From Acidobacteriota bacterium (lineage in GTDB: Bacteria; Acidobacteriota; Blastocatellia; UBA7656), in NCBI GenBank assembly GCA_031389065.1, contig JANMSG010001169.1, positions 1 to 48,516 on the forward strand: a stretch of DNA of 48,516 bases, written 5' to 3'. The notes under the pieces were generated by a model that saw only the letters and a program-made list of their open reading frames with translations, did no database searches and was not told where the DNA came from. Below are positions 7,372-46,318 of the stretch, piece after piece (position 1 is the first letter of the stretch; each line of letters opens with the position of its first letter). The position numbers and the translations under genes were made by a program.

Positions 7372-7451
7372 TCCAGTTGCGCCCCTCGGTGAATTGATTC
7401 ATCGGGCATTTGCCGTCGTCTCAAGAAGAAATAGTTCTTTGAAATAAAAGG

Positions 7452-7492
7452 AAAAATAAAAAGGCTCTGCTGTTTTGGAAGCAGAGCCTTTT
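7452..7492 (-). terminator. rho-independent terminator of groEL
   Basis: Stem GGCTCTGC (7463-7470) / GCAGAGCC (7481-7488), extendable with A-U pairs. On the minus strand it is followed by TTTTTATTTTT. It lies 31 nt after the groEL stop. Confidence 0.7.
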
Positions 7493-7523: not shown

Positions 7524-9155
<1,632 letters not shown>

Positions 9156-9179
9156 TTACTCCTTTATCTCTGTAAAAAT

Positions 9180-9500
9180 CTATTTGCCTTTGCCTTTGGC
9201 TTTTTCTGCTTTTTCAATCACGCCAAGGATGTCATCCTCGCGCATAATCAAATATTCTTGACCGTCGAGCTTGACTTCCGTACCCGCGTATTTGCCAAAA
9301 AGCACTCTGTCGCCTTCTTGAACATCAAGGTTGACATACTCCCCGCTGTCGAGTTTCTTGCCTTTGCCTACGGCAATGACTTCACCCTCTTGCGGTTTCT
9401 CTCTAGCGGCATCGGGAATGATGATACTGCCACGTACCTGCTCTTGCTCTTCGATTCTTTTGATGATAACTCTATCATTTAGTGGTCTAATGTTTGCCAT
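9180..9500 (-). CDS. groES: co-chaperonin GroES (Cpn10)
   Basis: [20 protein letters not shown]...[20 protein letters not shown]. 30 nt upstream of groEL. Lys-rich C-terminal tail. Confidence 0.97.
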
Positions 9501-9703: not shown

Positions 9704-10717
9704 TTATCGCCGTCTTTCAGACAAAGAGTGGGCTTGAACGACTGTAATAGCGACGGCATCACGTATATCTTCAGCCTTGCATCCTCGAGACAAGTCATTA
9801 GCAGGTTTCGCAAGTCCTTGCAAAATAGGACCTATGGCGGTGGCTCCTGCCAAGCGCTCTACGAGTTTATAAGCGATATTGCCGGCCTCAAGATTCGGAA
9901 AGATCAGGGTGTTCGCTTGCCCCGCAATCTTACTGCCGGGAGCTTTGCTTGCGGCGATTGACGCGATGAGAGCCGCATCTGCTTGCAATTCACCGTCAAC
10001 AAGTATGAAAGGAGCGCGAGCTTGAACGGTTCGCGTGGCTTCTACAACTTTATCAACAAGTGGCGAGTTTGCGCTGCCCTTGGTTGAAAACGACAGCATC
10101 GCGACACGTGCTTCAACTTCAAGCAAAGCTCTTGCTGAATCTGCCGAAGCGATGGCGATTTCAGCAAGCTCTGCTGCGGAAGGATTGATGATGACTCCGC
10201 AATCGGCAAAAATAAACGCGCCGTCGATGCCGAGTTTACTTCCCGGCACAAGCATCAAGAAGAAGCTAGAGACAACTTTGAGCCCCGCTTTCGGACCTAT
10301 GCAACGCAAAGCGGAACTGACCGTGTGTCCTGTCGTATGAGTAGCGCCCGATACGCTGCCATCGGCGCGACCTTCTTTCACCATCATATTGCCGAAGTAG
10401 AGCGGGTCTTTCATCTGCTCGCGCGCTTCATCCATCGTCACACCTTTCGCTCTACGCGCTTCGTAATAGCGTGCGGTATAAGTTTCCACTTCCGCAGAAC
10501 GCTTGGGGTCAATGACCGAAACGCCTGTAAGCGTCAGGTTCATCTGTGAAGCCTTGTCGCGTATGACTTCTTCGCGCCCGATGAGAGTGATGCGAGCCAA
10601 TCGTTCAGCTACCGAGAGCGCAGCTGCTTGAATGGCGCGTTCCTCTTCACCTTCAGGCAAAACGATGTGTTTGGGGTCGGCTGCAGCGCGCGCGCGTAGT
10701 TTTTCAAGGATATTCAT
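9704..10717 (-). CDS. pta: phosphate acetyltransferase (short PTA_PTB form)
   Basis: 337 aa. [45 protein letters not shown] and PANDLSRGC are typical Pta motifs. Confidence 0.85.
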
Positions 10718-10946
10718 TCGCGGGTTTCTCCAAAGTGATTTTGAAGGCGAGATTGTAGCCGATTTTTGAAATTCGGGCGAGGAATGAAACTAACCCTAAA
10801 AATGCAACCGCAGCGTCTTTGAAAAACTCTGCGTAGAGTTGCGCGTGAACTCTCCCCAATTCACGCGCCGCCTCTAGCAGTTTCATAGGACGCTGCGGTG
10901 TCTCGTGAGATGTGAGACAAGTTGCCAACTTGTCTCACATCGAAAA

Positions 10947-12679: not shown

Positions 12680-12744
12680 GGAAATCTTCATCCCATTAAC
12701 AAGGTGTTTTTGGAAATCTTCATCCCATTTAACAAAGTATTTTT
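12680..12744 (+). repeat. tandem 32/33-bp direct repeat in the divergent intergenic region
   Basis: GGAAATCTTCATCCCATTAACAAGGTGTTTTT (12680-12711) is followed directly by GGAAATCTTCATCCCATTTAACAAAGTATTTTT (12712-12744). It lies 36 nt upstream of the SYLF gene ATG. Confidence 0.9.
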
Positions 12745-20000: not shown

Positions 20001-21201
20001 CAAGAAAAATCAGCGCGAGTATGTTCTGCCGAAAGAGTTGCGCGAGTTCGTGCCTATCGAACCCAATCCCTACATTGTCGGCAATCCCATACGCACGGAA
20101 AAAATGTTCTACGGACGAGAAGACGATTTTCGTTACGTGCAAACCAAGCTCGAAGGCGCGTCGCAAGGCGTGGTCATCGTCTTTTGCGGCGAGCGCAGAG
20201 TCGGCAAGAGTTCGATTCTCTTTCAAGTGATGAACGGTAGATTGGGCGAGCGCTTCGTTCCGGTCTTCGTCGATATGCAAGAGATGGTCATCACTTCGGA
20301 CGCCGAGTTCTTCGCGCGCATCTCACGTTTGATCGTCGAATCGTTAGCGCGGAAAAACATCAAAGTCACTGCGCCTCAATTTCACGAAGGAAATCCTTAT
20401 CATATCTTCTTAGATTTTCTCGATGAAGTGTTGGCGGCGATAGAAGACCGAACGCTTTTGATATTGATGGACGAGTACGAGTTGATGGAATCGAAGGTAG
20501 ATGAAGGAAAGATTTCGCAAGAATTTTTTACCTTCTTAGCCGGCTTGATGGACAACAGAGAGCGTCTGGCGATTATCTTCACAGGTTCGCGGCGCCTCGA
20601 GGAGCGCGATAAAAAATATTGGCGCGACCTGTTGCGCCGCTCGCTGTTTCGCAAGGTCGGTTTCTTATCCGGCAAAGACACCCTGCGCCTCATCACAGAC
20701 CCTGTCGAAGGTCGCGTAGTTTACGGGCGCGGCGCGATTGAAGCGATTTGCAGATTGACGGCGGGACAGCCCTTTTATACGCAGGTCACCTGTCAAAACA
20801 TTGTTGATTATATGAACGAACACGAGCAGAACTATATTACGCTCGCAGACCTGCAGCATGTCACTGCAGACATCACAGACAACCCTCTGCCGCAGATGAT
20901 TTACACCTGGGACGCGCTTTCGGATGATGAGAAATTGGTGATGTCTTTGCTCGCTGATGCTCTGCCTGACGGTAACGATTTCGCCACCGCATACGATTTG
21001 CGAGTGGTTGTGAAAGCGAACGAATATCCTGTGAATTTATCTGAAACAACCATTCGCATGACGCTTGAAGAGATGTTCCGCCGCGAGTTGCTGGATAAAA
21101 ATGCCAGCGAGGGTTTCCGAATCAAAATAGATTTGTTCCGATTATGGATTCGCCGCTCACATTCCATCTGGCAAGTAGTCAAAGAAGTGCGAACGCTTTA
21201 A
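17011..21201 (+). CDS. transmembrane sensor: 2x CarboxypepD_reg + about 14 Reg_prop propeller blades + Y_Y_Y domain + TM helix + cytoplasmic Arch/ORC-type AAA NTPase with wHTH
   Basis: N-terminal anchor FALGSFIFVITSYVAIY. Repeated blade motif (e.g. VRAIFQDSEGWMWFGTDKGLARF, VRSIAEDQNGRIWIATPGGV). Y_Y_Y region around VQYLYRINPEGGNERWE. TM helix WWFYLFGLLVAGSATTAFFVV (aa 976-996). NPYIVGNPI...FYGREDDF (aa 1019 onward). Walker A GERRVGKSS (nt 20188-20214). Walker B LLILMDEYE. Confidence 0.8.
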   Translation: MKTGTKRQVHSRVFRFALGSFIFVITSYVAIYSSAHQTPVPQVNTASVIGFVQDDKGAPLEKVSVTISSPNFSASAFTTADGKFEFKNLAPAKYFITAQAARFRKTQTAITITKPDDIVPPITIKLAASSLHVAVYDANNQSLGGVMVSLYSQDSATSGNPTARTVTDKNGDAYFGRLAPSSYTLTAVLRGYDEYRNQVFISSDITTDFALQLLVAPVIPINTKAIARYSIPNLPAKNVRAIFQDSEGWMWFGTDKGLARFNGAEFKSSATTGSAYARLANEDVRSIAEDQNGRIWIATPGGVKRITKEGVEDGQWLSGVEARNIAVDAGGNVWVATASGVFKFDGKDLEAFDESRGLPSNDVRAIAIDKSGKVWIATAKGVAILADNKIHLLEPKRDVSTDNAEPLSVQPKPASQTATQKKSTASQTVTNTAQQPSQASTANPMALAKVNDLDDVQNLFIDKAGGVWLATNKGAIFIEANHTNTFDLSQAQVANGLSIRAISQDIAGRMWFALTEGGALIYDPSTRDSQRISLLEQDHIAAISNEREGYLWFATDNGAVYADFYSFILFTTSRGLSDNDVHAVIEDSSATTAQAHGNLWCVTSTGASRMQDERFVPIERFRTNIHIRGVAFDNTGAAWVATDQGAIKFSGKTLAQFSEGNGLASNNIRYVASLAKGAAMVFATSKGASIFENGVFRKLDGLDGYDARQIFEDTDGRLWFATSRGVMVYNRKTDVAKLIDTSRGLIDNDTRWITRYNGELLIATRAGVQIYNERQQSASSFDSEPANTIFVDRDNFLWVGTDNGQLKKIAAVQSHIVSSIYSGEIHSLTANRINSISEDNDGHIWIATDKGVVRHTPIRTTPSIQVSLKVEGRSEADSGSGRVELPNGRQRVTFRLTGVSMSKPVQYLYRINPEGGNERWELLPVQTGLEREIPFFEFTEGVNTFEVMALNRDLYGGLAPSAAITIYVNPPFYKKWWFYLFGLLVAGSATTAFFVVRKKNQREYVLPKELREFVPIEPNPYIVGNPIRTEKMFYGREDDFRYVQTKLEGASQGVVIVFCGERRVGKSSILFQVMNGRLGERFVPVFVDMQEMVITSDAEFFARISRLIVESLARKNIKVTAPQFHEGNPYHIFLDFLDEVLAAIEDRTLLILMDEYELMESKVDEGKISQEFFTFLAGLMDNRERLAIIFTGSRRLEERDKKYWRDLLRRSLFRKVGFLSGKDTLRLITDPVEGRVVYGRGAIEAICRLTAGQPFYTQVTCQNIVDYMNEHEQNYITLADLQHVTADITDNPLPQMIYTWDALSDDEKLVMSLLADALPDGNDFATAYDLRVVVKANEYPVNLSETTIRMTLEEMFRRELLDKNASEGFRIKIDLFRLWIRRSHSIWQVVKEVRTL

Positions 21202-21257: not shown

Positions 21258-23198
21258 ATGCATCGTAATCCTTATCTAAACCGTGTTGCTATTAAAGACC
21301 CGGCGCAGTTCTTCGGACGCGCGCGCGAAGTCTCAAAAATATTTTCCCGCATCGGCGCGTCGCGTCCGCAATCTATTTCCGTTGTTGGCGAACGGCGCAT
21401 AGGAAAATCGTCGCTTCTTTACTACCTCAACCATCCGCAAATTCGCGCCAAGTATCTCGATAAATCCGAAGATTACATATTCGTCTTCATAGACCTTCAG
21501 CAAAAACGCAAACTCAGGCTCACAGAGTTTTTTCAGGAGTTGTTTGCCTTAATTGCCAAAGAGATAAACGATGAGAAAATTACCTTGCTTGAACCAAGTT
21601 TCGATTCCTTGCGCGGCTTGCTCGAAAATTTTAGAAGCGAAGGGCGCAAACTCATCGTCCTGTTCGATGAATTCGATGTCATCACAACCAACCGCGCCTT
21701 CGATCTGGAGTTCTACTCATTCCTGCGCTCGATTGCAAATAACTACGACGTGGCGTATGTGACAAGTTCTGCGCGTGACTTGCAAGAGCTCTGCTACACG
21801 CAACTTATAGCCGATTCCCCTTTCTTTAATATCTTTACAAATGTTTTTTTGCGGGCTTTTTCGCGCAAAGAAGCTCTCGATTTAATTGTGGTTCCGTCAG
21901 TTCAAGAGGGCTTGCCGCTGGAAAATTATACGCGGCGAATTATGGAACTTGCCGGTCACTTTCCTTACTTTTTGCAAATCGCTTGCTCGGCTTACTTCGA
22001 TCATCTTTTGGAAAACGACGGCAAACTCAATCGTGAAGAGGTCGAAGACAATTTTCTCGATGAAGCCAAAGGACAATTCAGGTTCATCTGGGACAAAATG
22101 AGCGAAGGGCAACGCCGCGCCATTCGCAGCTTCGTTGAAAGTAACAAAGCTGAAAAAGAGCAAGCACATATTTTTGAAGATCTAAAACGCGCCGGTTATT
22201 TTCTCGAAGACGAGCGCGGGACTCGTTTGTTCTCTACCAAATTCTCTTCCGTGATTTCGCGCCCGCGAATGATTACTACGGAATTGCGTGACACAGACCG
22301 CGCCGCCATGGCTGTACATGACGGTAAGACGGAAAAAGTCGCTGCGCCGCCTTTGATTGAACCTCACGGACACATTGGCAGATTCGATATTCATCGTTCA
22401 TTAGGCGCGGGCGGAATGGGTGAAATTTTTGAAGCGTACGACACGGAACTTCAACGCACGGTCGCCATCAAAGTCCTGGTCTCAAAGTTTGTAGAAAATG
22501 AAACCATGAAGCAGCGGTTTTTGCGGGAAGCGCGCATGGCTTCGCAACTCAATCATCCGAATATCGCTACGATTTACGAGATCGGCGAGGCCGCTGGTAA
22601 TCCTTATATTGTTATGGAATGTGTTGAAGGCGAAACGCTCAATGACAAAATAAACAACGGCCCGATTGAGTTGAAAGATATCTTGGAAATCGGCGAGCAG
22701 ATCGCTGACGCGCTCGCCGAAGCGCACGAACACGGCGTCGTTCATCGCGACATCAAATCCGCGAACATCATGATTACGACTCGCGGAAAAGTGAAGGTGT
22801 TGGATTTCGGTTTGGCCAAACCTCTGCCTCTTTCGAGCGAGCGCAAGAATAAAACGAAGCTAACGGAATCCGGCGTGTTGCTTGGCACTGTGAGTTACAT
22901 GTCACCCGAACAAGCGACAGGGCAAGGAGATGTCTCGCATCTTTCGGATATTTTTTCGCTCGGTGTAGTGCTTTATGAAATGCTAACGGGGAGCTTGCCG
23001 TTTGAAGGCGACACTTATTTCCAAACCATTCAGGCGATAAACAAACGCACTCCGGTTTCGATAAAAAAACTTCGTAAAGACGCGCCCGCATCTTTGATTG
23101 CGATTATCGAACGTATGCTGAAAAAATCTCCGTCAGAGCGTTACCAGGCGGCATCAGAAATCGCGCGCGATTTGCGCAAAGTGGCTAGTGAAAGCTGA
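21258..23198 (+). CDS. Arch/ORC-type AAA NTPase-wHTH fused to a Hanks-type Ser/Thr protein kinase
   Basis: NPYLNRVAI...FFGRAREV. Walker A GERRIGKSS (from nt 21387). Walker B LIVLFDEFD. Kinase motifs: GAGGMGEIF, AIKVL, HRDIKSANIM (from nt 22743), DFGLAK, SPEQ. 56 nt downstream of the previous gene. Confidence 0.85.
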   Translation: MHRNPYLNRVAIKDPAQFFGRAREVSKIFSRIGASRPQSISVVGERRIGKSSLLYYLNHPQIRAKYLDKSEDYIFVFIDLQQKRKLRLTEFFQELFALIAKEINDEKITLLEPSFDSLRGLLENFRSEGRKLIVLFDEFDVITTNRAFDLEFYSFLRSIANNYDVAYVTSSARDLQELCYTQLIADSPFFNIFTNVFLRAFSRKEALDLIVVPSVQEGLPLENYTRRIMELAGHFPYFLQIACSAYFDHLLENDGKLNREEVEDNFLDEAKGQFRFIWDKMSEGQRRAIRSFVESNKAEKEQAHIFEDLKRAGYFLEDERGTRLFSTKFSSVISRPRMITTELRDTDRAAMAVHDGKTEKVAAPPLIEPHGHIGRFDIHRSLGAGGMGEIFEAYDTELQRTVAIKVLVSKFVENETMKQRFLREARMASQLNHPNIATIYEIGEAAGNPYIVMECVEGETLNDKINNGPIELKDILEIGEQIADALAEAHEHGVVHRDIKSANIMITTRGKVKVLDFGLAKPLPLSSERKNKTKLTESGVLLGTVSYMSPEQATGQGDVSHLSDIFSLGVVLYEMLTGSLPFEGDTYFQTIQAINKRTPVSIKKLRKDAPASLIAIIERMLKKSPSERYQAASEIARDLRKVASES

Positions 23199-26773: not shown

Positions 26774-28294
26774 TTAATCGGAGAGTTTGGCGGCAGCTAT
26801 GGCTTCCTCAAGCGATGTGACGACTCCATCGAGTTGAAGGTCATAAATGCGGCGGAGGATTTCGCCCATTTGCGGACCGGGTTGAATTCCTGCTTCAAGC
26901 AAATGTCGTCCCATGAGAATTGGCACCGGGGGACCGTTCTCCAAATTCAGCGCCTGGATATTATCTTTGAACCATTCCTCTCCTTCTGTTGACACATAGC
27001 CTCGAGCTACCCTATCGGCTTTCGCTAAAAGATAGAGTAAATTCATATCAACTCTTTGGGCAAGCCTACGAAAATCTCCATCCGTTGTGCACGCGCGGCC
27101 TTCGTAAAACTGGCGCGGTTTCGCTTGTTCACGCACCAGCGACAACACTTGTTCGCGCACATCATATCCTGCAATCGTGTGAAGCCCCAGTTTGTCCATC
27201 ACCCGAATTACAGGCTCGTTTTCATCGAACGGCGGGGCGATTACGTTTTGACACAGAGCGGCAAGCATAACGGTCAAGCGTTTCTCTTTCAGCAAATCGC
27301 GTGTGAGTTTTGCTGCTTCGTCTACGCGGTTTTTTGTGTACTCGAACGTATCGTCTTTTATCAACGATTCATTGGATTGCTTGTCAACCGCTTGACTGTT
27401 ATTAAGTTGATAAGCAGCCAGTGAACAAATTTGAGGGAAAAGTTTATCAAGCGCTCCGAGTTCAAGCGCAATCTGCAAGCCTATCGAAGGACGATTTGCG
27501 AGCAAGAACAGTTTTTCTAACTCGCCCCAAATGCGTTCGTGCGGCAAGTCCGAAAGGTCTATTGAACGGCACAATTCAATGGTCTGGGTTTCGATGCTCA
27601 TCGCAAATCGCGCGGTCATTTGAACAGCGCGCAACACTCTCAGGCTGTCTTCAATGAATGTGTCAGCGGCAACGGCGCGGAGTATTCGTTGATGCAAATC
27701 GGCAACACCGCCAAATGGATCAACGATTTCGTCCGTGAGCGGGTCTTGCATAATTGCGTTGATCGTGAAGTCGCGTCGTCGCGAAGCTTCTGCAAAAGTC
27801 ATGTCTGGGTCGCCTTCGATTACAAAGCTGCGATGGCCTCTACCTGATTTCGATTCGCGACGCGGAATCGAAACATCTATTTCAACTCTCACATTTCGGA
27901 GTGTCGAGTCCGGTGTCCCGTGTCCTGGGTCCGCCACCAGGAGTTCGGTGTCGTCTCTTTTTCCTTGTGAGTTTAAATTCGAGATCTGGGGTCTAAGGCT
28001 TGGGAAAGACTCATCTTCACTTATTTGAGACCTCTCATCTTTATCAGAATTTTGAGCATCATTTGATGGATAAAAAGCCAGTTTGTAAACGGCGAAATGT
28101 TCGCCTACCGTGTTGACCTGTGTGAGGGATTGGAGAATTTTCCGCAGCCGAGAAGGCTCAAGATGATAAACTTCAAGATCGAAGTCTTTTGATTCGAAGC
28201 CCAATAAGCGATCACGCACGCAGCCGCCTACAAGCATAGCTCGTCCGCCCGCGTCGCGCACCGCTTCACAAATTTTCAAAACATATTTATTCAT
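26774..28294 (-). CDS. cca: CCA-adding enzyme / tRNA nucleotidyltransferase (PolyA_pol family) with a low-complexity insertion in the head domain
   Basis: GGRAMLVGGCVRDRLLG, DFDLEV, IDVSIPRRE and RRDFTINA are class II nucleotidyltransferase motifs. About 60 extra residues (aa 76-135) lie between FAVYKL and IDVSIPRRE. Confidence 0.85.
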   Translation of the reverse strand: MNKYVLKICEAVRDAGGRAMLVGGCVRDRLLGFESKDFDLEVYHLEPSRLRKILQSLTQVNTVGEHFAVYKLAFYPSNDAQNSDKDERSQISEDESFPSLRPQISNLNSQGKRDDTELLVADPGHGTPDSTLRNVRVEIDVSIPRRESKSGRGHRSFVIEGDPDMTFAEASRRRDFTINAIMQDPLTDEIVDPFGGVADLHQRILRAVAADTFIEDSLRVLRAVQMTARFAMSIETQTIELCRSIDLSDLPHERIWGELEKLFLLANRPSIGLQIALELGALDKLFPQICSLAAYQLNNSQAVDKQSNESLIKDDTFEYTKNRVDEAAKLTRDLLKEKRLTVMLAALCQNVIAPPFDENEPVIRVMDKLGLHTIAGYDVREQVLSLVREQAKPRQFYEGRACTTDGDFRRLAQRVDMNLLYLLAKADRVARGYVSTEGEEWFKDNIQALNLENGPPVPILMGRHLLEAGIQPGPQMGEILRRIYDLQLDGVVTSLEEAIAAAKLSD

Positions 28295-28401
28295 AGTCCC
28301 TAGTCCTTCGTCTCTAGTCCTTAGCTATTAGCAAGCAGTCGTATTGAACTATGAGGTAACAAAAAGGTAAAGAGACTAAGGCCTAGGGACTATGAACTAC
28401 T

Positions 28402-33904: not shown

Positions 33905-33938
33905 AAAAGAGGCGCACTGTTTTGTGCGCCTCTTTTTA
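33905..33938. terminator. bidirectional rho-independent terminator
   Basis: AAAA-AGAGGCGCAC-tgtttt-GTGCGCCTCT-TTTT. It lies between the end of htrA (33838, +) and the stop of the minus-strand zinc-ribbon gene (33961). Confidence 0.75.
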
Positions 33939-33960: not shown

Positions 33961-34341
33961 CTACTTAAACTCAAGTCCGCATGTCAAACATTTGTGCGGC
34001 TCTTTCACGAGCAGAAATAAGAGCGAAAAGATGCAGATGACGAAAATCCCTATGACTGCCACAAGTATAGCCCAGAGCGGTATACCGCCTTTGATAACAT
34101 TGACCGACGCACAGCGCGGACAACAAAGTTGCCCGACAGCCTGACGCATAGGCAATGGCGGCGCTTGCTGATAATTGGGTGGAGGGTAATTCGCGCCTGC
34201 AAAACCAGCCGTGCCAACAGGAGGAACTGAAGGGATGTAACCGGAATTAGGGTCTGCTGGTTGTTTAAGCGGAGCCGAGCAATAACGACAGAAATTCGAT
34301 TCATCTCTATTTTCAGCGTTACATGTAGCACACAGCAACAT
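33961..34341 (-). CDS. hypothetical zinc-ribbon / Pro-rich / TM protein
   Basis: CATC-x13-CRYC zinc ribbon, Pro-rich linker, CPRC, one TM helix, C-terminal CLTC. Confidence 0.5.
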   Translation of the reverse strand: MLLCATCNAENRDESNFCRYCSAPLKQPADPNSGYIPSVPPVGTAGFAGANYPPPNYQQAPPLPMRQAVGQLCCPRCASVNVIKGGIPLWAILVAVIGIFVICIFSLLFLLVKEPHKCLTCGLEFK

Positions 34342-34422
34342 AAGTTATCCTCCCAACAATTTCACAGCCTCATCGAATTGTATTGCAGACTAAAGCCTCA
34401 GACGTAAAAGTGTCAAATCAAA

Positions 34423-34559
34423 CAGTAGGCAGTAGGCAGTAAGCAGTAGGCAGTTTGTAGGGCGTTTCTTTTTAACCTATCAAGAGATACAGACTGAGGA
34501 TATATGCTGTTTAGTAAAGGAATTATTAACTGCCTACTGCCTACTGCTTACTGCCTACT
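34423..34559. repeat. inverted heptamer-array element A
   Basis: Left arm 34423-34454 is (AGTAGGC/AGTAAGC)x4.4. A 74-nt AT-rich spacer follows. Right arm 34529-34559 is (GCCTACT/GCTTACT)x4.4. The right arm ends 3 nt from the creatininase-family stop codon. Confidence 0.9.
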
Positions 34560-34562
34560 AAA

Positions 34563-35387
34563 CTACAGGCCAGCCATATCCCATTTGAGGCGAATCTCTA
34601 AAATTAACTTGGTAATTTTCTGTGTGACCTTGGCGAAATATTCATCAGCTTTCGCTTGATCGAATTTCACGTAGCCTTGTCCTTCCTTGTACAAACCTAT
34701 GGAAGAAGGCGCAGGATAAGCCGAATAAGTGCCTGGCGCGGGATTCGGCGTTGCCAGGTCATTTGAATAACGCTCTTTGTGAACGAGTTTCGGGTCTATC
34801 GCTTGAATGAAAGCGTTTTCGTTCAAACCTGCGTGTCCGCCGTCTTCGCCAAATACCGCAAGCGTCACATCAGAACAATAGCTCCACCAATTGATGACCA
34901 GAGTTCGCACCCGCTTTTCTTGTCCGACCTCCATAGCAAGCTGATTCAGTACAGCAGTTTGTGGCCCACCGTGTCCGTTCATCACAATGATGTTGCGAAA
35001 TCCGGTCTTTGCCAATCCGTTCAGCACATCTTTCACATAAAGGCGATAAGCTGCTTCCGAAATCGAGAACGCGCCCGGATATGCGTCCATGCTTCCGGTG
35101 ATGCCGTAAGGGATGACCGGCGCAATCATTGCATTTACTTCTTTCGCGATCTTGCGCGCAATCGCTACGGGCGCGGTGATGTCTGCGCCATTGTTGATCA
35201 CGCCGTGCGGCTCAAGCGTTCCCGTAGGCAAAATCACAGTGTTGATTTTTGAGGGTACAACCTCTTTGAACTCCATCCAATTGATGTCGCTCAGGTCTCG
35301 CGTAGAGAGCGTGTCAGATGTTTGGGCAAAAGAATTGGTTGCTGCAAGAGTGATCATGCAAATTGAAAAAAAGATAACGCGACGCAT
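34563..35387 (-). CDS. creatininase-family amidohydrolase with N-terminal signal peptide
   Basis: Signal peptide MRRVIFFSICMITLAATNSFAQ. Creatininase-family metal-site motifs LEPHG, MNGHGGP, GGHAG. Confidence 0.8.
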   Translation of the reverse strand: MRRVIFFSICMITLAATNSFAQTSDTLSTRDLSDINWMEFKEVVPSKINTVILPTGTLEPHGVINNGADITAPVAIARKIAKEVNAMIAPVIPYGITGSMDAYPGAFSISEAAYRLYVKDVLNGLAKTGFRNIIVMNGHGGPQTAVLNQLAMEVGQEKRVRTLVINWWSYCSDVTLAVFGEDGGHAGLNENAFIQAIDPKLVHKERYSNDLATPNPAPGTYSAYPAPSSIGLYKEGQGYVKFDQAKADEYFAKVTQKITKLILEIRLKWDMAGL

Positions 35388-35548
35388 AGCAATTTCCTCC
35401 TGAAATGCGATTTAAAAATTGACTAAAAGCAGAGCTTGTCTCTGCCCGAGTTGCGCAGAGAATAATGACAGGGTGTATATCATCACAAATTCATCGCCTA
35501 CAGCGATTCGGGCAATGCTTGGGGCTGCCCTTACAATTGTATTGAAAG

Positions 35549-37732
35549 CTATCCTTCGATTTTCACCACGCCGATTTTATCCAACAGGCGCAAATAATCG
35601 GAAACGTCTTCAACCGAAATCGCGCCATAGGCGGCTATCAAATAATCGCGTATGGCTTGAATGCTGCGCTTGCCATCAACCAGATTGAGAATTTCGTAAA
35701 GCAGGATTTCGCCTTTTGGCTGGGCGCTGATTCGTTCGACGACGCGCAGGTCTTCGCCACTTGCGCGAGCCGCTACGTAATCGTAGTAATAAACATTCAT
35801 CGGTCCTTTGACCTTGCGTGTAGGAATGCGGTTGTAATCGAAATTCACAGAACGCGGGCGTGATGCCTCTTTCGGATTACGTGGTTTGGATTTAACCTTT
35901 GCATCTTTCGGTTGTTCTTTCGCTTCAATTGTGAAGATCACGCGATTACCTTTTCGTTGTTCAGTGATTTGTCCGGTCAATAACAGCCAGGCACCGCTCA
36001 ATTGTTCGACCAAGCCATCAATCTTATTTTCGAGATTCTTATCGTTTGGCGCAAAGTTCAGGATCGAGCCCAAAATTTCCGCCTCGTGTTCAAGCGAACG
36101 AACGATGATATTACGGGCTTCTTCGGCTGCGCCTTCAACGCCGCTCACTTCGATAGCTGCGGCTCGCGCTCTGTCTTTCGGCAAACGCCCCATAGACCTG
36201 GCAAAAACTTCATCGGCAAGCCGTGAAGCCTCGCGCGCTCCGGCTTTGGCTAAAAAGTAACCGGACGCTCCGGCTATGAAAGCAGAGCGTTTCATCTTCG
36301 TCGCATCAATGTTTTCAGGTTTGTCGTTGTTCGTGTGTATAAAAACGTCTGGCCAATCGCGTAAATAAATCGTCGGAATGCGAAACGAGCCTTCTTGATA
36401 AACGTCGTGGTCTGACCCCATTTCGAAAGGCGTGGTGTCGGCAACCAGGCTGTCTTTGCTGCCTTCTGCGGAAATCAACGCATCCGTGAAACCGGCTCCT
36501 GCAGCCGCTTTCGCGCTTCCCTCTATGGCATACTCAGCAAAAATATCGCCAACGGTATTGATCGCGCTTGGCAGAGAGGCAGGCGTATGGGTAATGTGAA
36601 GAACCGATTTCGTGAGCGCAAAATTGCCACCGACCATATCGCAATGCACAGCCGCTTTCATACGTCTTACGATTTCGGGATGCTCTGCAAAGTATGCGAG
36701 AGTGCCGTTGATTTCAGGAGGCCAAATAAATCTGATGGTGCGGCGCGGGCGTTCTATTTCGCCGCGCTTGATCAAAGTTGTCAAGGTGCGAGCGACTTCT
36801 AAAATCGCCGCCGCGCCCGATGCATTGTCATTTGCGCCAGGTTTTTGATGACAGAGATGACAGGAAAAAACAATCTCTTCATCCGCAGCATCTGTGCCGC
36901 TAATCACTGCCGTTACCACATCGTATTTGCCAGGCTTCATTTCCGCTTTCACGATGGCGCGAAGCCTGATTTGTTCGCCGCGCGCCAGTCTCTCTTTGAA
37001 CTCGCGGGCGCGCCGCAATGAAATCATAAAGGCGAATTTGTTACGGGCGTTGTAAGGCGAAAGGTGTCCCCAACGAACATTATCAACATAATCGCCAGAC
37101 CAACCCGTCACTTGATTCTGTTGGAAGCTCAAGACGCCAGCCGCGCCACGATCTTCGCAAGCCATTTTGTGTGCTGCGGCAACATTGCCTCCGGCAAGCA
37201 CCATCTTGCCCTTCACGTCTTTGCCTTCGTAATCACTTGCCGACGTGCCAGACCCCACATCAACGAGGGCGGCAGTTACATCAGCGGTTTGCGAATAATC
37301 GGCAAGCGCGACATGCATCTCTTCATAATCGGCTATTTTCGATTTGTGCGGCTCCATTTCCCAAAGCGTGGCGCTTTCGGCTTCCCAACCCGGCGTTGAT
37401 TGCAGCGTGTGATAGGTCTTTTCGCCATCGGCAACGAAACGCTCAATTTTGATTTGCTCAAGCCCGTACTCTTTCGCTTTCGCGGCGACGAATTCAGCAG
37501 CCGACGAAAACCCCGAAGACGCTTGCACGCGATGGAACCGCGCAAGTTGCGTCACTGTATCTTTGGCTACAAGACCGTTCATCTCTGCGCCAAGCACAGC
37601 GATTTCTTTGTCCGTTAGCAAAGGCGTTTTGGTAAATTGATGATCGGTTGTTTGTTGGTTTGCCGAAGCCTTGAAAAGTTGCAGTTGTATAAGAAAAATC
37701 GAAAGAATTAGGAGAGCGATAATTTTTTTCAT
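35549..37732 (-). CDS. secreted M28 family metallopeptidase with PA domain and C-terminal extension
   Basis: Signal peptide. PA-like insert (GKDVKGKMVLAGG). M28 metal-ligand contexts (CHLCHQKPGANDNASGAAA, HCDMVGG, GSDHDVY). About 200 aa of C-terminal extra region ending in a wHTH-like LLYEILNLVDGKRSIQAIRDYL. Confidence 0.75.
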   Translation of the reverse strand: MKKIIALLILSIFLIQLQLFKASANQQTTDHQFTKTPLLTDKEIAVLGAEMNGLVAKDTVTQLARFHRVQASSGFSSAAEFVAAKAKEYGLEQIKIERFVADGEKTYHTLQSTPGWEAESATLWEMEPHKSKIADYEEMHVALADYSQTADVTAALVDVGSGTSASDYEGKDVKGKMVLAGGNVAAAHKMACEDRGAAGVLSFQQNQVTGWSGDYVDNVRWGHLSPYNARNKFAFMISLRRAREFKERLARGEQIRLRAIVKAEMKPGKYDVVTAVISGTDAADEEIVFSCHLCHQKPGANDNASGAAAILEVARTLTTLIKRGEIERPRRTIRFIWPPEINGTLAYFAEHPEIVRRMKAAVHCDMVGGNFALTKSVLHITHTPASLPSAINTVGDIFAEYAIEGSAKAAAGAGFTDALISAEGSKDSLVADTTPFEMGSDHDVYQEGSFRIPTIYLRDWPDVFIHTNNDKPENIDATKMKRSAFIAGASGYFLAKAGAREASRLADEVFARSMGRLPKDRARAAAIEVSGVEGAAEEARNIIVRSLEHEAEILGSILNFAPNDKNLENKIDGLVEQLSGAWLLLTGQITEQRKGNRVIFTIEAKEQPKDAKVKSKPRNPKEASRPRSVNFDYNRIPTRKVKGPMNVYYYDYVAARASGEDLRVVERISAQPKGEILLYEILNLVDGKRSIQAIRDYLIAAYGAISVEDVSDYLRLLDKIGVVKIEG

Positions 37733-37747
37733 CGGGGGAAGCCTCTT

Positions 37748-37888
37748 AAGCAGTAGGCAGTAAGCAGTAAGCAGTAGGCAGTTGAAATAGCAGGCAATCG
37801 AAAGAGAAGATAGATAATTGAGTAAACAGCAAGCGATATTTTACCCCTCTCTCGCTTACTGCCTACTGCTTACTGCTTACTGCTTACT
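37748..37888. repeat. inverted heptamer-array element B
   Basis: Left arm 37748-37782, 71-nt spacer, right arm 37854-37888. The right arm overlaps the GT2 stop codon (37884-37886). The left arm ends 16 nt upstream of the M28 ATG. Confidence 0.9.
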
Positions 37889-39800
37889 CTGTTTTAACGC
37901 GGCGCAATTTTGGCGCAATCGCCATCACGCTCGCGTAAGCGTAACCAAAAAAATAGATCAGCAAAAATGGAATCGTTCCGAAAATCTGGCTTTTAATCGC
38001 GTACCAAATCGTGAATATGAAATAGAGCGCGAAGACAATTTCAAGCCAGGGCAAAGACCAGCGCCGCGCCGCATAATTCTTCTTGACCCAACTCTTATCT
38101 TTACCCTCTTCGATACGATACTTGGGTGTTCGCACAAACTCAGACTTGTGACCGATCAACGCTTCAAACACCGCGCGGGCGTTAGAGAAAGTCAGCGCAA
38201 TCCCCATGCTCATAGCAAACGGAATGTATTTCAAGAGTCGCTTCCAGCTGGTCGGATGCAGATAAATTTGCGGCACTAAAAAGTACGCGATAACCGAGAC
38301 GGTTGAAAAAGTCAGGATCGGCAAATCGAGAACGAAGAGATGAAAAAGACCTTGATTGTAGCGCACAATCAGGATCGGCAAGTTGACCAACGCAAGAATG
38401 ATAACCAGAGGCGCAGCCAGATTACCTGTCAAGCGGAAGAACTGTTCGAATTTGACTTGCAACGATAAACGAGGATCTTTCCGAATACGCTTCATCAACT
38501 TGATGCCGACTTGCACAACGCCTTTCGCCCAACGTTTCTGCTGCGATTTGAAAGCGTTGATGTCAACAGGCAGTTCTGCCGGCACGTCTTCGTCCATCAA
38601 ATAAACGAAATGCCAGCCCATCAACTGAGCGCGATACGAGAGGTCTGTGTCTTCTGCGAGGGTGTCGTGTTGCCAGCCACCTGACCATTCGATGGCTTCG
38701 CGTCGCCACATTCCGGCTGTGCCGTTGAAGTTAAAGAAACCGCCGCAGCGGTTGCGCGCCGTCTGTTCGATGACGAAATGCGCGTCGAGCATAATGGATT
38801 GCACTTTGGTGAGCAACGAATAATCGGCGTTGAGATGGCTCCAACGCATCTGCACCATGCCGACGCGCTCCTCCGTGAAGAAATCAACCATCTTGCGAGC
38901 GCAATCGGGATGCGGCACAAAGTCCGCATCAAATATCAAAATCAGTTCGCCTGATGATTTCTTTAAACCTTCTTCAAGCGCGCCTGCCTTGTAGCCTGAG
39001 CGGTTGGCGCGATGATGATAAACAATGTCGAAGCCTTGATCGAAATACTTCTTCACAGCGCTTTGCGCAATCTCCACAGTGTCGTCCGTCGAATCATCAA
39101 GAACTTGAATTTCGAGCAAGCCGCGCGGGTAATCAATCTTCGTGACGGCTTCAATCAAGCGCTCCGAAACATACATTTCGTTGTAGAGCGGAAGTTGAAC
39201 GGTGATGCGTGGCAGGCGATCATCTGAAAAACGCGCTTTCGGTTGCGGTGGATATTTTTTATAACGCAGGAAAAGATAGATCATTCGAAAGCGATACACA
39301 CCATAGCAAGAGAGCAATCCGAGAATGCCAAAATAGATAATCATCAAATAATTATCCAAAGCATCATTGAGATTGAGATAGCTGATATTGCCTGCAGGAT
39401 AGGCGCCACCGTTACTTTCCATGGAAGCGATCATTTTATCTACAGCGACATTGCCCGTCGGTCTGGTTTCAAGTGCGAGCAATTCTGTTTCTGTAAGCAT
39501 GCCTGCTTCTAACGTGACATTGCCGAGGATGAGTTCGATGTTTTGCGCTTGAGAGATGAGCGTATATTTGCCCGGTTCAAGAGTATCGAATACGAATTTG
39601 CCCTGGTCATTGGCTATGGCGTTGGTCTCTTGCTCTGTCGCTTGATTGCGAGCAACGACCGTCAAGCCATACATAATATACCCACGCGGGTCCTTGATTT
39701 CGCCGCGCAGCGAACCCGTGGTTGCCGCTACAGCAGCGATTGATAAAAGAGAAATCAATAAAATCGCGTTCAATAATTTCATAATAAATTTTCTATACAA
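37884..39800 (-). CDS. family-2 processive glycosyltransferase (CslA/cellulose-synthase-like) with N-terminal CarboxypepD_reg domain
   Basis: N-terminal signal/anchor plus LRGEIKDPRGYIMYGLTVVARN...GKFVFDTLEPGKYTLIS. GT2 motifs LPLYNE, VLDDSTD, FDADF, EDTDLS, QQKRWAKG (QxxRW). Multiple C-terminal TM helices. Confidence 0.85.
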   Translation of the reverse strand: MYRKFIMKLLNAILLISLLSIAAVAATTGSLRGEIKDPRGYIMYGLTVVARNQATEQETNAIANDQGKFVFDTLEPGKYTLISQAQNIELILGNVTLEAGMLTETELLALETRPTGNVAVDKMIASMESNGGAYPAGNISYLNLNDALDNYLMIIYFGILGLLSCYGVYRFRMIYLFLRYKKYPPQPKARFSDDRLPRITVQLPLYNEMYVSERLIEAVTKIDYPRGLLEIQVLDDSTDDTVEIAQSAVKKYFDQGFDIVYHHRANRSGYKAGALEEGLKKSSGELILIFDADFVPHPDCARKMVDFFTEERVGMVQMRWSHLNADYSLLTKVQSIMLDAHFVIEQTARNRCGGFFNFNGTAGMWRREAIEWSGGWQHDTLAEDTDLSYRAQLMGWHFVYLMDEDVPAELPVDINAFKSQQKRWAKGVVQVGIKLMKRIRKDPRLSLQVKFEQFFRLTGNLAAPLVIILALVNLPILIVRYNQGLFHLFVLDLPILTFSTVSVIAYFLVPQIYLHPTSWKRLLKYIPFAMSMGIALTFSNARAVFEALIGHKSEFVRTPKYRIEEGKDKSWVKKNYAARRWSLPWLEIVFALYFIFTIWYAIKSQIFGTIPFLLIYFFGYAYASVMAIAPKLRRVKTE

Positions 39801-40034
39801 AAAACCGGGCGTTGGATGTTACTGGTAACCAGATTGTTGTATGAGTCAAGCCGAAAGTATAGGGGCGCGAGACAGGGATTTCAAGACCTTCTCGGGTGCT
39901 TGCCTTACAGCCATGAAAGCCTTATTCTAGGCGCTAATCTAATATTTTTTTTGAGTTGCTTTGCGCTCTCACACTCAATAACACCTGGCGCGACTTGCTT
40001 AACGGCTCAGGCTCAAAAAAACCGCGGAGGCTTG

Positions 40035-41594
40035 ATGAACAAATCAAAACAACTCTTTATCGTTCTCTTCTGGATAAGTGCCCTTGTCTTTCTGTCTTTG
40101 TCAGGGTCAAGCACGCAGACCAAGAGAACTCTGTCGCAGAAGACCGTGGAGCCTTCGCGTCGAATCGTTGCGCCGAAAATTTGGGATGCCAAGGCGTTAG
40201 CCAACTGGGCTACGCCGATTAACGGTGTAAATGCAACGCCAAATTATCTCAGCGAAGACGAATACTATGCAGCGCCTGTTGATAATCTGCGAACCTATGC
40301 GGTCTATCATCCCGACTACGAGCCGAAAGGTTATCAAGAGTGGGTAAAGAAGCAAGGCGCGCAGCCCTTAATTGAACCTGAAAAACTCAAGACCGAAAGA
40401 GATTGGATAGAAGCGGGTCGCCGCGTTTTTGAAGAGTTTGATGTGCCGGTTGTGCGAACCAGTGATCCTCGCGTTTTTGCCTACCTGCAAGACCGCTTGG
40501 CGATGAAACGAGACGGTAACGTCACCAAAGAGGGCGTGATTGCTGGTGTTCGATGGGTCGTGGAAAAAAACGGGGAGGTCAAGTTGGCATTATCCGAGTG
40601 TGCGGCTTGTCATACACGCTTGATGGATGACGGCTCAGTCATTCGCGGCGCACAGGGCAATCTCAACTTGGGCTCTCAAATCATCGGCTACCTGGTTGAA
40701 GGCTTCGCAAAGAACAATGAAAAATTGGGCGTATCGTTGGCACAAAGCGAATATGGCGCTTATGGCGTGCCTTGGATTAAAGACGATATTCACGAGCGCT
40801 TCAAAAAAATGAGCGAAGAAGAGATCGGCACTGTCGATGGCCCGCCGCTTCCCGGCACGTTTCCCAGATTCAATGGCAGCCCTTACTACATCACGAAAAT
40901 TCCAGACCTCATAGGCGTCAAAGACCGTCGCTATCTTGACCATACGGGAACCCATCTGAACCGCGGTTCCAAAGACATCGCCCGTTACGGCGCATTGGTG
41001 GGGTATGCGGAAGACGGTGCCATCGGTCATTATAAATTCCTTACAGAGGAACAGCGTCGTTTGTCATTTCGTCTGAGCGATGAAGCTCTCTATGCGCTTG
41101 GCAAATATATCTATGCGCTAGAGCCGCCGCCAAATCCCAACAAACCCAACTCGCTCACAGCGCGAGGCAAAAAGGTCTTTGAGCAGGAAGGTTGCACCAT
41201 GTGTCACGCGCCGCCACACTACACCAACAATATGCTTATGCCAGTTGACGGATTCACACCCCCCAAAGATGATCCGGCAACTGAGCGACTCCACATTCTG
41301 CGAGGCGTTCGCCTCGGAACCGATCCAAATCTGGCTTTGAAGACGCGAAAAGGAACAGGCTATTACAAAGTTCCTTCGCTCAAAGGGCTTTGGTATCGCA
41401 GCTTACTTGAGCATTCGGGGTCCATCGCTTCTCTTGAAGATTGGTTGGGTAAAAAGCGCTTGCGAGATGATTACGAGCCAAGCGGCTGGAAAGGTCCTGG
41501 CATAAAAACACGCGCCGTGAAGGGACACGAATTCGGGCTTGAGCTTTCAATAGCAGATAAAAATGCACTCATCGCGTTTCTAAAAACTCTTTAG
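40035..41594 (+). CDS. putative di-heme c-type cytochrome (CCP/MauG-like), exported
   Basis: Two CxxCH motifs (CAACH, CTMCH). Start set at ATG 40035 (MNKSKQLFIVLFWISALVFLSL, GGAGG upstream). The ORF is open from 39816. Confidence 0.65.
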   Translation: MNKSKQLFIVLFWISALVFLSLSGSSTQTKRTLSQKTVEPSRRIVAPKIWDAKALANWATPINGVNATPNYLSEDEYYAAPVDNLRTYAVYHPDYEPKGYQEWVKKQGAQPLIEPEKLKTERDWIEAGRRVFEEFDVPVVRTSDPRVFAYLQDRLAMKRDGNVTKEGVIAGVRWVVEKNGEVKLALSECAACHTRLMDDGSVIRGAQGNLNLGSQIIGYLVEGFAKNNEKLGVSLAQSEYGAYGVPWIKDDIHERFKKMSEEEIGTVDGPPLPGTFPRFNGSPYYITKIPDLIGVKDRRYLDHTGTHLNRGSKDIARYGALVGYAEDGAIGHYKFLTEEQRRLSFRLSDEALYALGKYIYALEPPPNPNKPNSLTARGKKVFEQEGCTMCHAPPHYTNNMLMPVDGFTPPKDDPATERLHILRGVRLGTDPNLALKTRKGTGYYKVPSLKGLWYRSLLEHSGSIASLEDWLGKKRLRDDYEPSGWKGPGIKTRAVKGHEFGLELSIADKNALIAFLKTL

Positions 41595-41595
41595 C

Positions 41596-41724
41596 CAGTA
41601 GGCAGTAAGCAGTAGGCAGTAGGCAGTTAAGAATTCAAATTGGCTGTTATGAATGAACCGTCAAACTAACAATAACGATAATTTTTAGTTTCCCATATTT
41701 ACTGCCTACTGCTTACTGCCTACT
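41596..41724. repeat. inverted heptamer-array element C
   Basis: The left arm 41596-41627 starts 2 nt after the di-heme gene stop. A 73-nt spacer follows. The right arm 41701-41724 ends 1 nt before the glpX stop (41726). Confidence 0.9.
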
Positions 41725-41725
41725 A

Positions 41726-42769
41726 TTAGAACCGCACAACAGTGTCGGGTCCTCCTTCTATATGAACCGTGTCAATGAAGCGTACGCTCTTAGTTTTGGC
41801 TGTGGACATAATGATTGACGACGTGCGAACCCCTGCGCCAAAGAAACGCACGCCTTTCAGAATCGTTCCATCGGTCACGCCTGAGGCGGCGAAGACGATG
41901 CTTTTGCCCGGCGCTAAATCGTCCGTGTCGTAAATTCGATAAGGGTCGGTGATACCCATCGCTTCCATTCTTTCAACCGCGTCTTCGGCAATCCTGCTGC
42001 GGTCTTCCAGGTCTTCGAGTTGTTCTTTCAAAACAAAGCGCGCCAGTATCTGTCCGTTTAAACATTTCATCGCCGCAGCCGTCAACACGCCTTCAGGCGC
42101 GCCGCCCGTCCCCATAACCGCGTGAACACCCGAGCCAGCAACGGCGGCAGAAATGCCCGCCGACAAATCGCCATCCGAGATCAGCTTGATTCTTGCACCC
42201 GCTTCGCGAATGTCGGCGATGAGTTTTTTGTGACGAGGACGCTCCAGCACGATGACAACCAAATCTTCAATATCGCGGTTGAGTCTTCGGGCAATTGCTT
42301 TCAAGTTGTCTTTGACAGGCGCGTCCAAATCCACAGCGCCTTTCGACGAAGGCCCGACGATAAGTTTCTGCATATACAAATCGGGCGCATGAAGAAGTCC
42401 TCCTCTTTCGGCGCAAGCCATCACGGCGATGGCGTTGGATGAACCCGTGGCGCAAAGATTCGTACCTTCGAGCGGGTCAACGGCTATGTCAACTTCAGGG
42501 TAGTTTTCAGGATCTTCAATTCCTTCTTTATAACCCAGCCCGAGTTTCTCGCCAATGTAGAGCATAGGCGCTTCGTCGCGTTCGCCTTCACCGATAACGA
42601 TCTCGCCGCGCATCGGCACGGTATCCATAATCTTCCGCATCGCTTCTACGGCAACGTGGTCAGAGTATTTGCGGTCGCCTCGCCCCATGGTTTTGGCAGA
42701 TTCAACGGCGGCTTCTTCAACGATGCGAAGGAAATCAAGTCCCAGATCTTGTTCCAGCTTTCGCTCCAT
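41726..42769 (-). CDS. glpX: class II fructose-1,6-bisphosphatase (GlpX type)
   Basis: [42 protein letters not shown] and GTGGAPEGV are GlpX signatures. Start set at ATG 42769 with AAGGAGG upstream; the ORF is open to 42847. Confidence 0.93.
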
Positions 42770-43121
42770 AATTTGTTCCTCCTTATTTAGTGCGATAGAA
42801 ATCCGACAAGACGGATTCAAAAAATGATTCCTGGCGACGCTTTTCAAGCGCGGCTCAGTTTATCAATCTTTCATTGTCGCGACAATCTGAGTTGCCATCG
42901 CATAAAAGAAATCTCCTTGCGAAAAGCTCAACCATTCCGATTTTTCTGAGCCAGCCAATTGCTTCACAAAAAAATGTGAGAATTCCTGCACTGTTTCTCC
43001 TGCTTTTTCCGTCAGTAGTTAATAGAGGGCTCCGATTCCCTTTTTCGTACTACTCGAAATTAACTGCTCGTCAATGTTGCAGACCGAGCAAGTTGGGAAT
43101 TTACTTTTCCGGAGCCTCATT

Positions 43122-46227: not shown

Positions 46228-46318
46228 GTATTCACCACAGAGACGCAAAGAACCCAGAGGTTACACAGAGAGTGTTGATAAAACTCTGCGTAACCTCTGC
46301 GCTTTCTGCGGTGGATAC
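46228..46318. repeat. REP-like palindromic element (family also at 13572-13644)
   Basis: 46228-46272 GTATTCACCACAGAGACGCAAAGAACCCAGAGGTTACACAGAGAG and 46284-46318 CTCTGCGTAACCTCTGCGCTTTCTGCGGTGGATAC form an imperfect hairpin (core CAGAGGTTACACAGAG / CTCTGCGTAACCTCTG). Confidence 0.8.

Follow-up and report, generated by a model that had tools for sequence, protein, structure and literature searches.

The stretch of 48,516 nt from contig JANMSG010001169.1 of an Acidobacteriota bacterium (assembly GCA_031389065.1), hereafter called the window in its whole length, carries three intergenic elements, E1, E2 and E3, in which an array of tandem heptamers, (AGTARGC)4-5, is followed by a spacer and then by the reverse-complement array. 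These elements are polar, convergent and resident at their loci, they vary in unit number and in unit family, they are able to pair into a stem of about 30 bp, and they abut stop codons. With high confidence, E1-E3 can be described as resident intergenic hairpin elements in which heptanucleotide simple-sequence arrays, similar to the short tandemly repeated repetitive (STRR) sequences, surround ordinary locus-specific DNA, and we are just as sure that they belong together with the inverted heptamer arrays that occur in convergent pairs in Xanthomonas and Nostoc, although their unit is free of G-tracts. They are a new example of a known, functionally unexplained class of bacterial simple-repeat hairpins and not a new mobile element. 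As an overall explanation, arrays that are driven by slippage and that act as RNA hairpins at 3' ends or between cistrons would have about an even chance of being correct.

Anatomy of the elements and their place among known repeats

Direct reading found the three elements built as, and located where, a preliminary description of this DNA had placed them (Table 1). Tandem Repeats Finder (TRF) and an inverted-repeat finder both retrieved the arrays, with arms of 24-33 nt and a complementarity of 91-100%, and the 14-mer AGTARGCAGTARGC, at up to one mismatch, has 18 matches in the window, all of them within E1-E3, where shuffled sequences lead one to expect 0.03. The stem of about 30 bp that had been proposed was also borne out by folding, which gave a predicted free energy (dG) of -55 to -65 kcal/mol and z scores of -7 to -10 on both strands. 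The spacers have a GC content of 27-38%, against 48% for the window. The earlier claim that they are unrelated to one another holds as well: when the three were aligned locally in both orientations and compared with shuffles, five of the six comparisons gave p >= 0.46 with no convincing similarity, and the sixth, in which E2 was set against E1 in reverse complement (p=0.04), owed its score to a single 9-nt match. Rfam covariance models gave no match in the window at the gathering score.

The inverted-repeat finder also returned a fourth element of the same design, absent from the first account, whose unit is TAGTCCY. It is flanked by a cytochrome c gene and a PolyA_pol-family gene and occupies the whole of the gap, so that the ATG of the PolyA_pol-family gene (28292-28294, minus strand) lies within the stem. 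When it is counted together with E1-E3, the predicted stems measure about 25-33 bp, and on both strands their dG spans -44 to -65 kcal/mol and their z scores -6 to -10. All four elements of the window are intergenic and pressed against coding sequences, and the arms of E1-E3 lie 3 nt, 0 nt (overlap), 2 nt and 1 nt from stop codons. E3 takes up all of the 131 nt that separate the convergent cytochrome-c-like and glpX genes, and E1 is placed between the creatininase stop codon and a conserved promoter-like block.

Heterocystous cyanobacteria carry the STRR sequences, known since 1990, with the units CCCCAGT (STRR1), TTGGTCA (STRR2) and CAACAGT (STRR3). The arrays described here resemble them in their 7-nt tandem units, intergenic position, genome-wide dispersal and dominant heptamer period, and in the CAGT core that is common to STRR1 and STRR3, which makes the link closer than the loose reminiscence first allowed for. 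However, the unit sequences differ, the host is not a cyanobacterium and a paired, polar and inverted layout lies outside the STRR definition. Assignment to the cyanobacterial STRRs in the strict sense was rejected on the unit AGTARGC, on the window having no HIP1 (GCGATCGC) site and on homologues that bear the names Blastocatellia or Acidobacteria. In the broader sense of heptanucleotide long simple-sequence repeats of STRR type, the elements have 4-5 head-to-tail units per arm, an excess of period 7 and a unit number that varies between relatives. Heptanucleotides outnumber all other long simple-sequence repeats in many genomes, with polymerase slippage proposed as their origin (Mrazek 2007, as cited in PMC4679880 and PMC4692102).

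The arrays of GGGAATC in Xanthomonas and of GGGGA(C/T)T in Nostoc, both G-rich and described as GGGNATC repeats, were reported by Rehm et al. 2015 (PMC4692102). According to that study, a Xanthomonas genome holds 70-75 convergent inverted pairs of GGGAATC arrays, which are capable of stem-loop formation and in which four units are preferred; the arrays are mostly intergenic and near stop codons, transcripts tend to begin or end at the repeats, and the G-rich strand is the coding strand after or overlapping a stop codon, with the C-rich strand directly before the next open reading frame (ORF). Position and type are kept between related species with variable length, there is no link to mobile elements, and neither an established function, nor a functional class of associated genes, nor a regulatory role was found (PMC4692102). 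Our elements share with these arrays the convergent pairing of heptamers, a mode of about four units, the adjacency to stop codons (the G-rich strand is coding within about 50 nt of a stop or overlapping it), the conserved position with variable length and the same polarity. For this reason the family, first presented as unplaced, finds its place in the heptanucleotide simple-sequence class and among the convergent inverted pairs of Xanthomonas and Nostoc. It differs from them in its phylum, Acidobacteriota, and in a unit without G-tracts: AGTAGGC and AGTAAGC hold at most GG, where a G-quadruplex calls for at least four G3-4 tracts. Since AGTARGC is unable to form a G-quadruplex, the four-unit preference and the architecture are independent of such potential, and the G-quadruplex explanation given for the four-unit preference in Xanthomonas does not generalise. 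What the present analysis adds to the Xanthomonas and Nostoc arrays is an absolute polarity and the replacement of one unit family by another at orthologous sites. A literature search found no paper on such arrays in Acidobacteria.

Other repeat classes share fewer of these features. The TAACTGA repeats of Beggiatoaceae, Cyanobacteria and Bacteroidetes, for which a post-transcriptional role has been proposed (MacGregor 2015, PMC4679880), are likewise intergenic heptamer arrays that contain stop codons and are spread over distant phyla, but they are direct repeats (169 direct sets against one inverted) and are found upstream of start codons, often within a few nt, and not at stops (PMC4679880). 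The elements are not a clustered regularly interspaced short palindromic repeat (CRISPR) array, as had been recognised before: in place of three or more direct repeats of 23-50 nt in series with unique spacers, the repeats are inverted, there is one spacer per element and the elements stand 3-4 kb apart with genes between them.

Orthologous gaps in relatives and the wider family

Nine syntenic contigs, which represent seven distinct relatives, were fetched through the peptidase encoded beside E2, at 81-90% amino-acid identity. Inverted short-repeat arrays occupy the same four gaps in most of these relatives, with differing units (AAGGCAA, GGAGTCT, GGTGTCC, TAGTCCG and CAGTGGT). The E2 site holds AGTARGC in the window and in the relatives L247, L248, L249 and L243, and AAGGCAA in L241, L244 and L246, and the E1 site holds AGTARGC in the window, L243 and L249, and units of the GGAGTCT or GGTGTCC types in L241, L244 and L246. 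At the E3 site AGTARGC is present in the window only, and the same gap carries TAGTCCG/TAGCCCC in L247 and L243, CAGTGGT in L246 and a non-heptamer inverted repeat in L241; at the TAGTCCY site neither the place nor the unit family has changed in L241, L243 and L244. In these four gaps the two arms of one locus always come from one unit family, which amounts to arm-wide compensatory change.

The E2 spacer is about 80-84% identical to those of L248 and L247 over an aligned core of 49-59 nt (p<0.002), and the inner boundaries of the arrays are anchored, with a unit number that goes from 4-5 in the window to 5 in L248 and to 2, with decaying arms, in L247 (4 in a further orthologue). The homology of the E2 spacer in the closest relatives shows that spacers are ordinary, vertically inherited intergenic DNA and that the arrays are the dynamic part, which speaks against the earlier suggestion of a structured non-coding RNA with a variable core; in the same way, the presence of elements at orthologous positions in relatives is at odds with the footprint of a mobile or recombination process. 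Spacer homology is undetectable at 81-86% protein identity, a result that is uninformative, as neutral sites are probably saturated there. A separate observation concerns positions 19380-19496 of L243, where the two arms of a single element have diverged, (TAGTCCT)4 against (GACTAAT)5, and pair at six of seven positions; within-arm homogenisation appears to have been faster there than between-arm correction.

For the survey of the wider family, the search pattern was limited to the arms, deliberately, to avoid pre-selecting a spacer length, and three independent scans covered genomes, metagenomes and viral contigs. Three AGTARGC units were found in genomes of more than 119 species, and among the 119 loci listed 38 are from Acidobacteriota (Pyrinomonadaceae, Blastocatellia, Vicinamibacterales and Terriglobia), the others being from Bacteroidota, Planctomycetota, Chloroflexota, Proteobacteria and further groups. 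The 24-mer AGTARGC arm core was present in at least 120 metagenome contigs and the three-unit pattern in 69 viral contigs. At acidobacterial loci, inverted arrays of CAGT-core heptamers (CAGTAGG, CAGTGAG, CAGTAGA, CAGTGGT, CAGGAGG and others) are the rule, often as nested mirrored blocks. The dominance of the heptamer is also apparent in 150 kb formed by the window and its syntenic relatives, fetched through protein homology and not through the repeat, where arrays of period 7 number 31, against 0-3 each for periods 5, 6 and 8-12.

The three scans provided 161 inverted AGTARGC pairs (49 + 54 + 58, from L001-L119, L121-L240 and L250-L318), whose spacers range from 5 to 243 nt (median 36, interquartile range 21-65); 4% of these spacers lie within 70-82 nt. 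A spacer of fixed length had been thought characteristic of the family; its near-constancy in E1-E3 stands, but the range among these pairs, and the 46-88 nt seen in syntenic relatives, do not agree with a fixed length. Three spacers drawn at random from the 161 pairs lie no more than 9 nt apart 4.5% of the time, and AGTARGC elements in the clade of the window have spacers of 74, 71 and 73 nt (window) and of 66, 67, 46, 88, 75 and 65 nt. The near-equal spacers of E1-E3 reflect at most a loose tendency of the clade (about 65-75 nt) and no design rule. Arm length has its mode at 4-5 units among the surveyed inverted heptamer pairs.

Polarity is absolute in this set: all 161 AGTARGC pairs are arranged as 5'-(AGTARGC)n…(GCYTACT)n-3' and none in the opposite way. 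Among 43 inverted heptamer pairs of other unit families at the surveyed loci, the 5' arm has more G than C in 29 and more C than G in 6 (p = 1e-4). Stop codons were considered as the source of the polarity and rejected, since in the other unit families stop-containing units occur as often in one arm as in the other (18 against 15 of 43); stop codons can explain the tolerance of arrays at gene ends, not their polarity. The polarity may come from the avoidance of a naked C-rich arm on which Rho could load, from an asymmetric template-switch mechanism or from polar recognition. This absolute polarity, together with an architecture that is kept despite the change of unit family at orthologous loci, offers concrete handles for experiments.

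The arrays also have practical consequences for assembly and annotation. The short-read contig L120 (Logan SRR20217208, 3249 nt) corresponds to about 34531-37779 of the window and has both of its ends inside the E2 and E1 arms, from which it follows that the arrays break short-read assemblies. Because the arms are free of stop codons when read outward, they can produce false N-terminal extensions in gene calls, and a peptidase gene call of 750 aa in L243 (10001-12253) has an N-terminal extension across the 3' arm of the E2 orthologue.

A possible RNA-level role and competing explanations

A role at the RNA level, as a stem-loop at 3' ends or between cistrons, is put forward tentatively, with chances that we place slightly under even. 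Replication slippage would enlarge and shrink the arrays by 7-nt steps, and the complementarity of the arms could be upheld through selection for pairing and/or through intrastrand template switching. In the long run one unit family would give way to another at a locus, and the position, the heptamer period, the arms of about 4-5 units and the polarity would persist. Whichever strand is transcribed, the RNA is predicted to fold into the same stem of about 28-33 bp, closed by a loop of about 70 nt and placed where the upstream gene has its stop codon, and this stem-loop could serve as a barrier to 3' exonucleases and read-through or as a double-stranded entry site for RNase III, and such action would separate neighbouring transcripts or cistrons. 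Since each AGTARGC unit includes a TAG or a TAA, and 7 and 3 share no common factor, an inward-facing arm halts translation in all three frames, and this is why the arrays are able to abut or overlap gene ends. Across the family, inward-reading ORFs often run into an array and terminate there at the TAG/TAA of its units 1-3, with offsets of -5, -12 and -19.

Several observations weigh against a stem-loop role. The order of G and A units is mirrored between the arms weakly above random, as 25 of 1000 shuffles reach the observed score (p about 0.025). The next start codon is 15 nt away from E2 and 0 nt away from the TAGTCCY element, and a strong terminator so placed would silence the downstream gene. 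Family-wide, 35 of 337 arm tails (about 10%) are T-rich, and divergent-gene gaps hold 20-26% of the pairs by crude stop-to-stop ORF calls, although such calls deserve little trust, given that the arms lack stop codons in the outward direction and that spurious ORFs arise in high-GC genomes. Arms have decayed or been lost at the E2 site of L247 and at the E3 sites of L241 and L249, which fits with weak or no selection. Finally, hairpin stability fails to account for the 161:0 polarity, since both arrangements fold equally well on both strands, and this polarity is left unaccounted for both by a stem-loop role and by its main rival, a mutational by-product.

According to this main rival, 7-nt slippage creates the arrays and template switching at quasi-palindromes copies them across, so that the elements regenerate themselves, are nearly neutral and have only incidental effects on RNA; we regard this as a possible but rather doubtful account. 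It agrees with a constraint that is limited to periodicity, with the turnover of unit families at orthologous loci, with copy numbers that differ among close relatives, with the decayed or lost arms in L247, L241 and L249, with spacers that are free in sequence and length and with the occurrence of elements across many phyla and in viral contigs, and the Xanthomonas study recognised neither a regulatory role nor any functional class among the associated genes. However, the architecture is kept in the same four gaps across 10-20% divergence of the neighbouring peptidase, the mode of arm length is narrow, at 4-5 units, and an absolute polarity combined with the excess of G over C in the 5' arm across unrelated units requires either selection or an asymmetric mechanism.

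Less probable still, and in our view improbable, is that slippage has enlarged the stems of what would be canonical bidirectional intrinsic (Rho-independent) terminators. Like intrinsic terminators, the elements form a stem-loop right after stop codons and between convergent genes, as E3 does, with a symmetric layout on both strands; a U-rich stretch (GUUUGAUUUG) comes after E1 and ahead of the promoter-like block, and the AAGGCAA/TTGCCTT arrays at the orthologous E2 site resemble an enlarged A-tract, stem and T-tract. Unlike such terminators, they have a stem of about 30 bp built from repeats in place of a short GC-rich one and a loop of 40-75 nt (71-74 nt in E1-E3) in place of one of 3-8 nt, and they usually come without a U-tract: E2 and E3 have none, E1 alone in the window has a U-rich tail and the family-wide frequency is the low one given above. 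Moreover, E2 and the TAGTCCY element immediately precede the next start codon, matches to the terminator consensus in the region number 25 against 22 +/- 4 in shuffled sequence, and canonical terminators exist elsewhere in the same window (about 33905-33935 and 7449-7490). The class of canonical intrinsic terminators was rejected on these loops and tails.

A further reading, which we would call a long shot, goes beyond plain slippage and proposes that the arms are actively written and homogenised around a retained spacer, and that polar inverted heptamer arrays constitute a pan-bacterial class of cis-elements. Arms would then be rewritten in place towards the unit family prevalent in the same genome. 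At the E3 site the window has AGTARGC where relatives at 84-88% identity have TAGTCCG-type units, this switch runs towards the family already present at two nearby loci, and the E3 spacer of the window shares a 12-nt exact match with the L243 spacer at the same site, a weak match with p about 0.02. Switch and match give a hint that arms may have been rewritten around a retained spacer, in what is a single event with a weak match. If true, active writing together with the 161:0 polarity would imply an unknown asymmetric mechanism or a trans-acting machinery, for which templated 3'-end addition, directed gene conversion and selection through Rho or R-loops are candidates.

A role at the DNA level appears very improbable, whether as polar arrays bound by a protein (a roadblock, insulator or nucleoid organiser), as Chi-like recombination signals pointing outward from the centre or as cruciforms. 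The 161:0 polarity and the G-rich 5' arm do recall polar protein-DNA sites, and tandem heptads would suit cooperative binding. Nevertheless, many unrelated unit families occur at orthologous positions and also together in one genome, which argues against a sequence-specific binder and makes the protein-binding heptad array of the first account unlikely, and no candidate gene is linked within the window.

The least probable explanation, to which we give hardly any credence and which our own results have already largely refuted, is mobile DNA in the form of a miniature inverted-repeat transposable element (MITE) or a REPIN-like non-autonomous element (REPINs being built from repetitive extragenic palindromic, REP, sequences), with heptamer terminal inverted repeats and a transposase or RAYT encoded elsewhere. 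It would be in keeping with near-identical arms at three loci within 7.3 kb, with the breaking of short-read assemblies by the arms and with a spacing of about 71-74 nt that recalls the 71 bp of GI REPINs; like REPINs and REP sequences in bacterial interspersed mosaic elements (BIMEs), the elements are extragenic hairpins with inverted conserved ends around a spacer of characteristic length (Bertels and Rainey 2011, PMC3116915). But the ends of REPINs are REP palindromes rather than tandem heptamers, and REPIN copies can be aligned over the spacer as well and are mobile as whole units in association with a cognate RAYT (PMC3116915), whereas the paralogous spacers of E1-E3 are mutually unrelated, so that copies are not alignable across them, spacers of the family vary in length and neither a transposase nor a RAYT gene was found in the window (37 of 38 ORFs scanned). 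In E1-E3 no target-site duplication or other direct repeat was seen flanking the arms, nor a conserved interior, and relatives carry the element in orthologous gaps with a homologous spacer. MITE and REPIN or REP were both rejected on these grounds, and the preliminary description was right to set the elements apart from MITEs and from classical REP/BIME sequences.

Gene context and other repeats in the window

The genes around E1-E3 (Table 1) are ordinary chromosomal genes that are syntenic in relatives, and all 38 ORFs of the window have the same ordinary character. Pfam scans of 37 of them, which left out the ORF at 9138-9482 (plus strand) that overlaps the cpn60 gene, found no transposase, RAYT or integrase. 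Homologues of the M28 peptidase at 72-90% identity bear the names Blastocatellia, Acidobacteria or Acidobacteriota, and the tetranucleotide composition of the window is nearest to that of Acidobacteriota and Pyrinomonadaceae loci. A cyanobacterial origin was rejected, and the source appears to be a Blastocatellia-like acidobacterium.

Table 1. Coordinates of the repeat elements and of their neighbouring features in the window.
Feature	Positions	Strand	Description
TAGTCCY element	28290..28396		same design as E1-E3; arms 28290-28322 and 28364-28396, 41-nt spacer; inverted-repeat finder
Zn-ribbon gene	33961-34341	-	
Promoter-like block	34387..34416	-	TTGACA-N18-TAGTCT, directly after E1, upstream of the Zn-ribbon gene
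E1 5' arm	34423..34454		C AGTAGGC AGTAGGC AGTAAGC AGTAGGC AGT; direct reading, TRF, inverted-repeat finder
E1 spacer	34455..34528		74 nt, 32% GC, locus-specific intergenic DNA
E1 3' arm	34529..34559		ACTGCYT units; 3 nt short of the creatininase-family stop (34563-34565, minus strand)
Creatininase gene	34563-35387	-	
M28 peptidase/DUF4910 gene	35549-37732	-	
E2 arm beside the M28 peptidase start	37748..37782		an AAGAGG Shine-Dalgarno-like motif lies in the 15 nt between its outer edge and ATG 37732
E2 spacer	37783..37853		71 nt, homologous to the same-locus spacer of the closest relatives (L248, L247)
E2 arm overlapping the glycosyltransferase stop	37854..37888		GCYTACT x5; the outer unit includes the TAA at 37884-37886 (minus strand) that ends the family-2 glycosyltransferase gene
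Family-2 glycosyltransferase (GT2) gene	37884-39800	-	
Cytochrome-c-like gene	39816-41594	+	
E3 5' arm	41596..41627		begins 2 nt past the TAG stop (41592-41594) of the cytochrome-c-like gene
E3 spacer	41628..41700		73 nt, 27% GC
E3 3' arm	41701..41724		1 nt short of the TAA stop (41726-41728, minus strand) of the glpX-type FBPase gene
glpX FBPase gene	41726-42847	-	

The promoter-like block that follows E1 was read from the aligned intergenic regions and is kept in all five relatives with contigs spanning the gap (L241, L243, L244, L246 and L249). In L241 its -35 hexamer is supplied by the last repeat unit.

Convergent gaps elsewhere in the window contain hairpins at 46244-46310 (27-nt arms), at 3887-3942 (19-nt arms) and at about 33905-33935 (a canonical bidirectional terminator), and since the remaining convergent gaps hold hairpins, E3 sits where a hairpin is normal. 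Downstream of cpn60 there is a canonical terminator with A-tract, stem and T-tract and, after it, an inverted repeat of unique sequence, whose stem measures 25-28 bp and whose loop measures 42 nt (7285-7376 and about 7449-7490). The gap between an anti-sigma (zf-HC2) gene and a phosphotransacetylase gene holds a perfect palindrome of 16+16 nt with 1 nt between its arms (10909-10941) and a longer imperfect inverted repeat (10693-10833).

Among the remaining observations, a 32-nt tandem duplication (12680-12744; two copies, 90% identical) lies in the divergent gap between genes for an extracytoplasmic function (ECF)-type sigma factor and a Ysc84-domain protein. At 21258-23198 an nSTAND2 NTPase is fused to a Ser/Thr protein kinase domain, and it adjoins a Reg_prop/CarboxypepD_reg protein of 1396 aa (17011-21201). 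Within the PolyA_pol-family coding region there is a degenerate heptamer run of GTCCGGT (27908-27933), with 3.7 copies and 78% matches.

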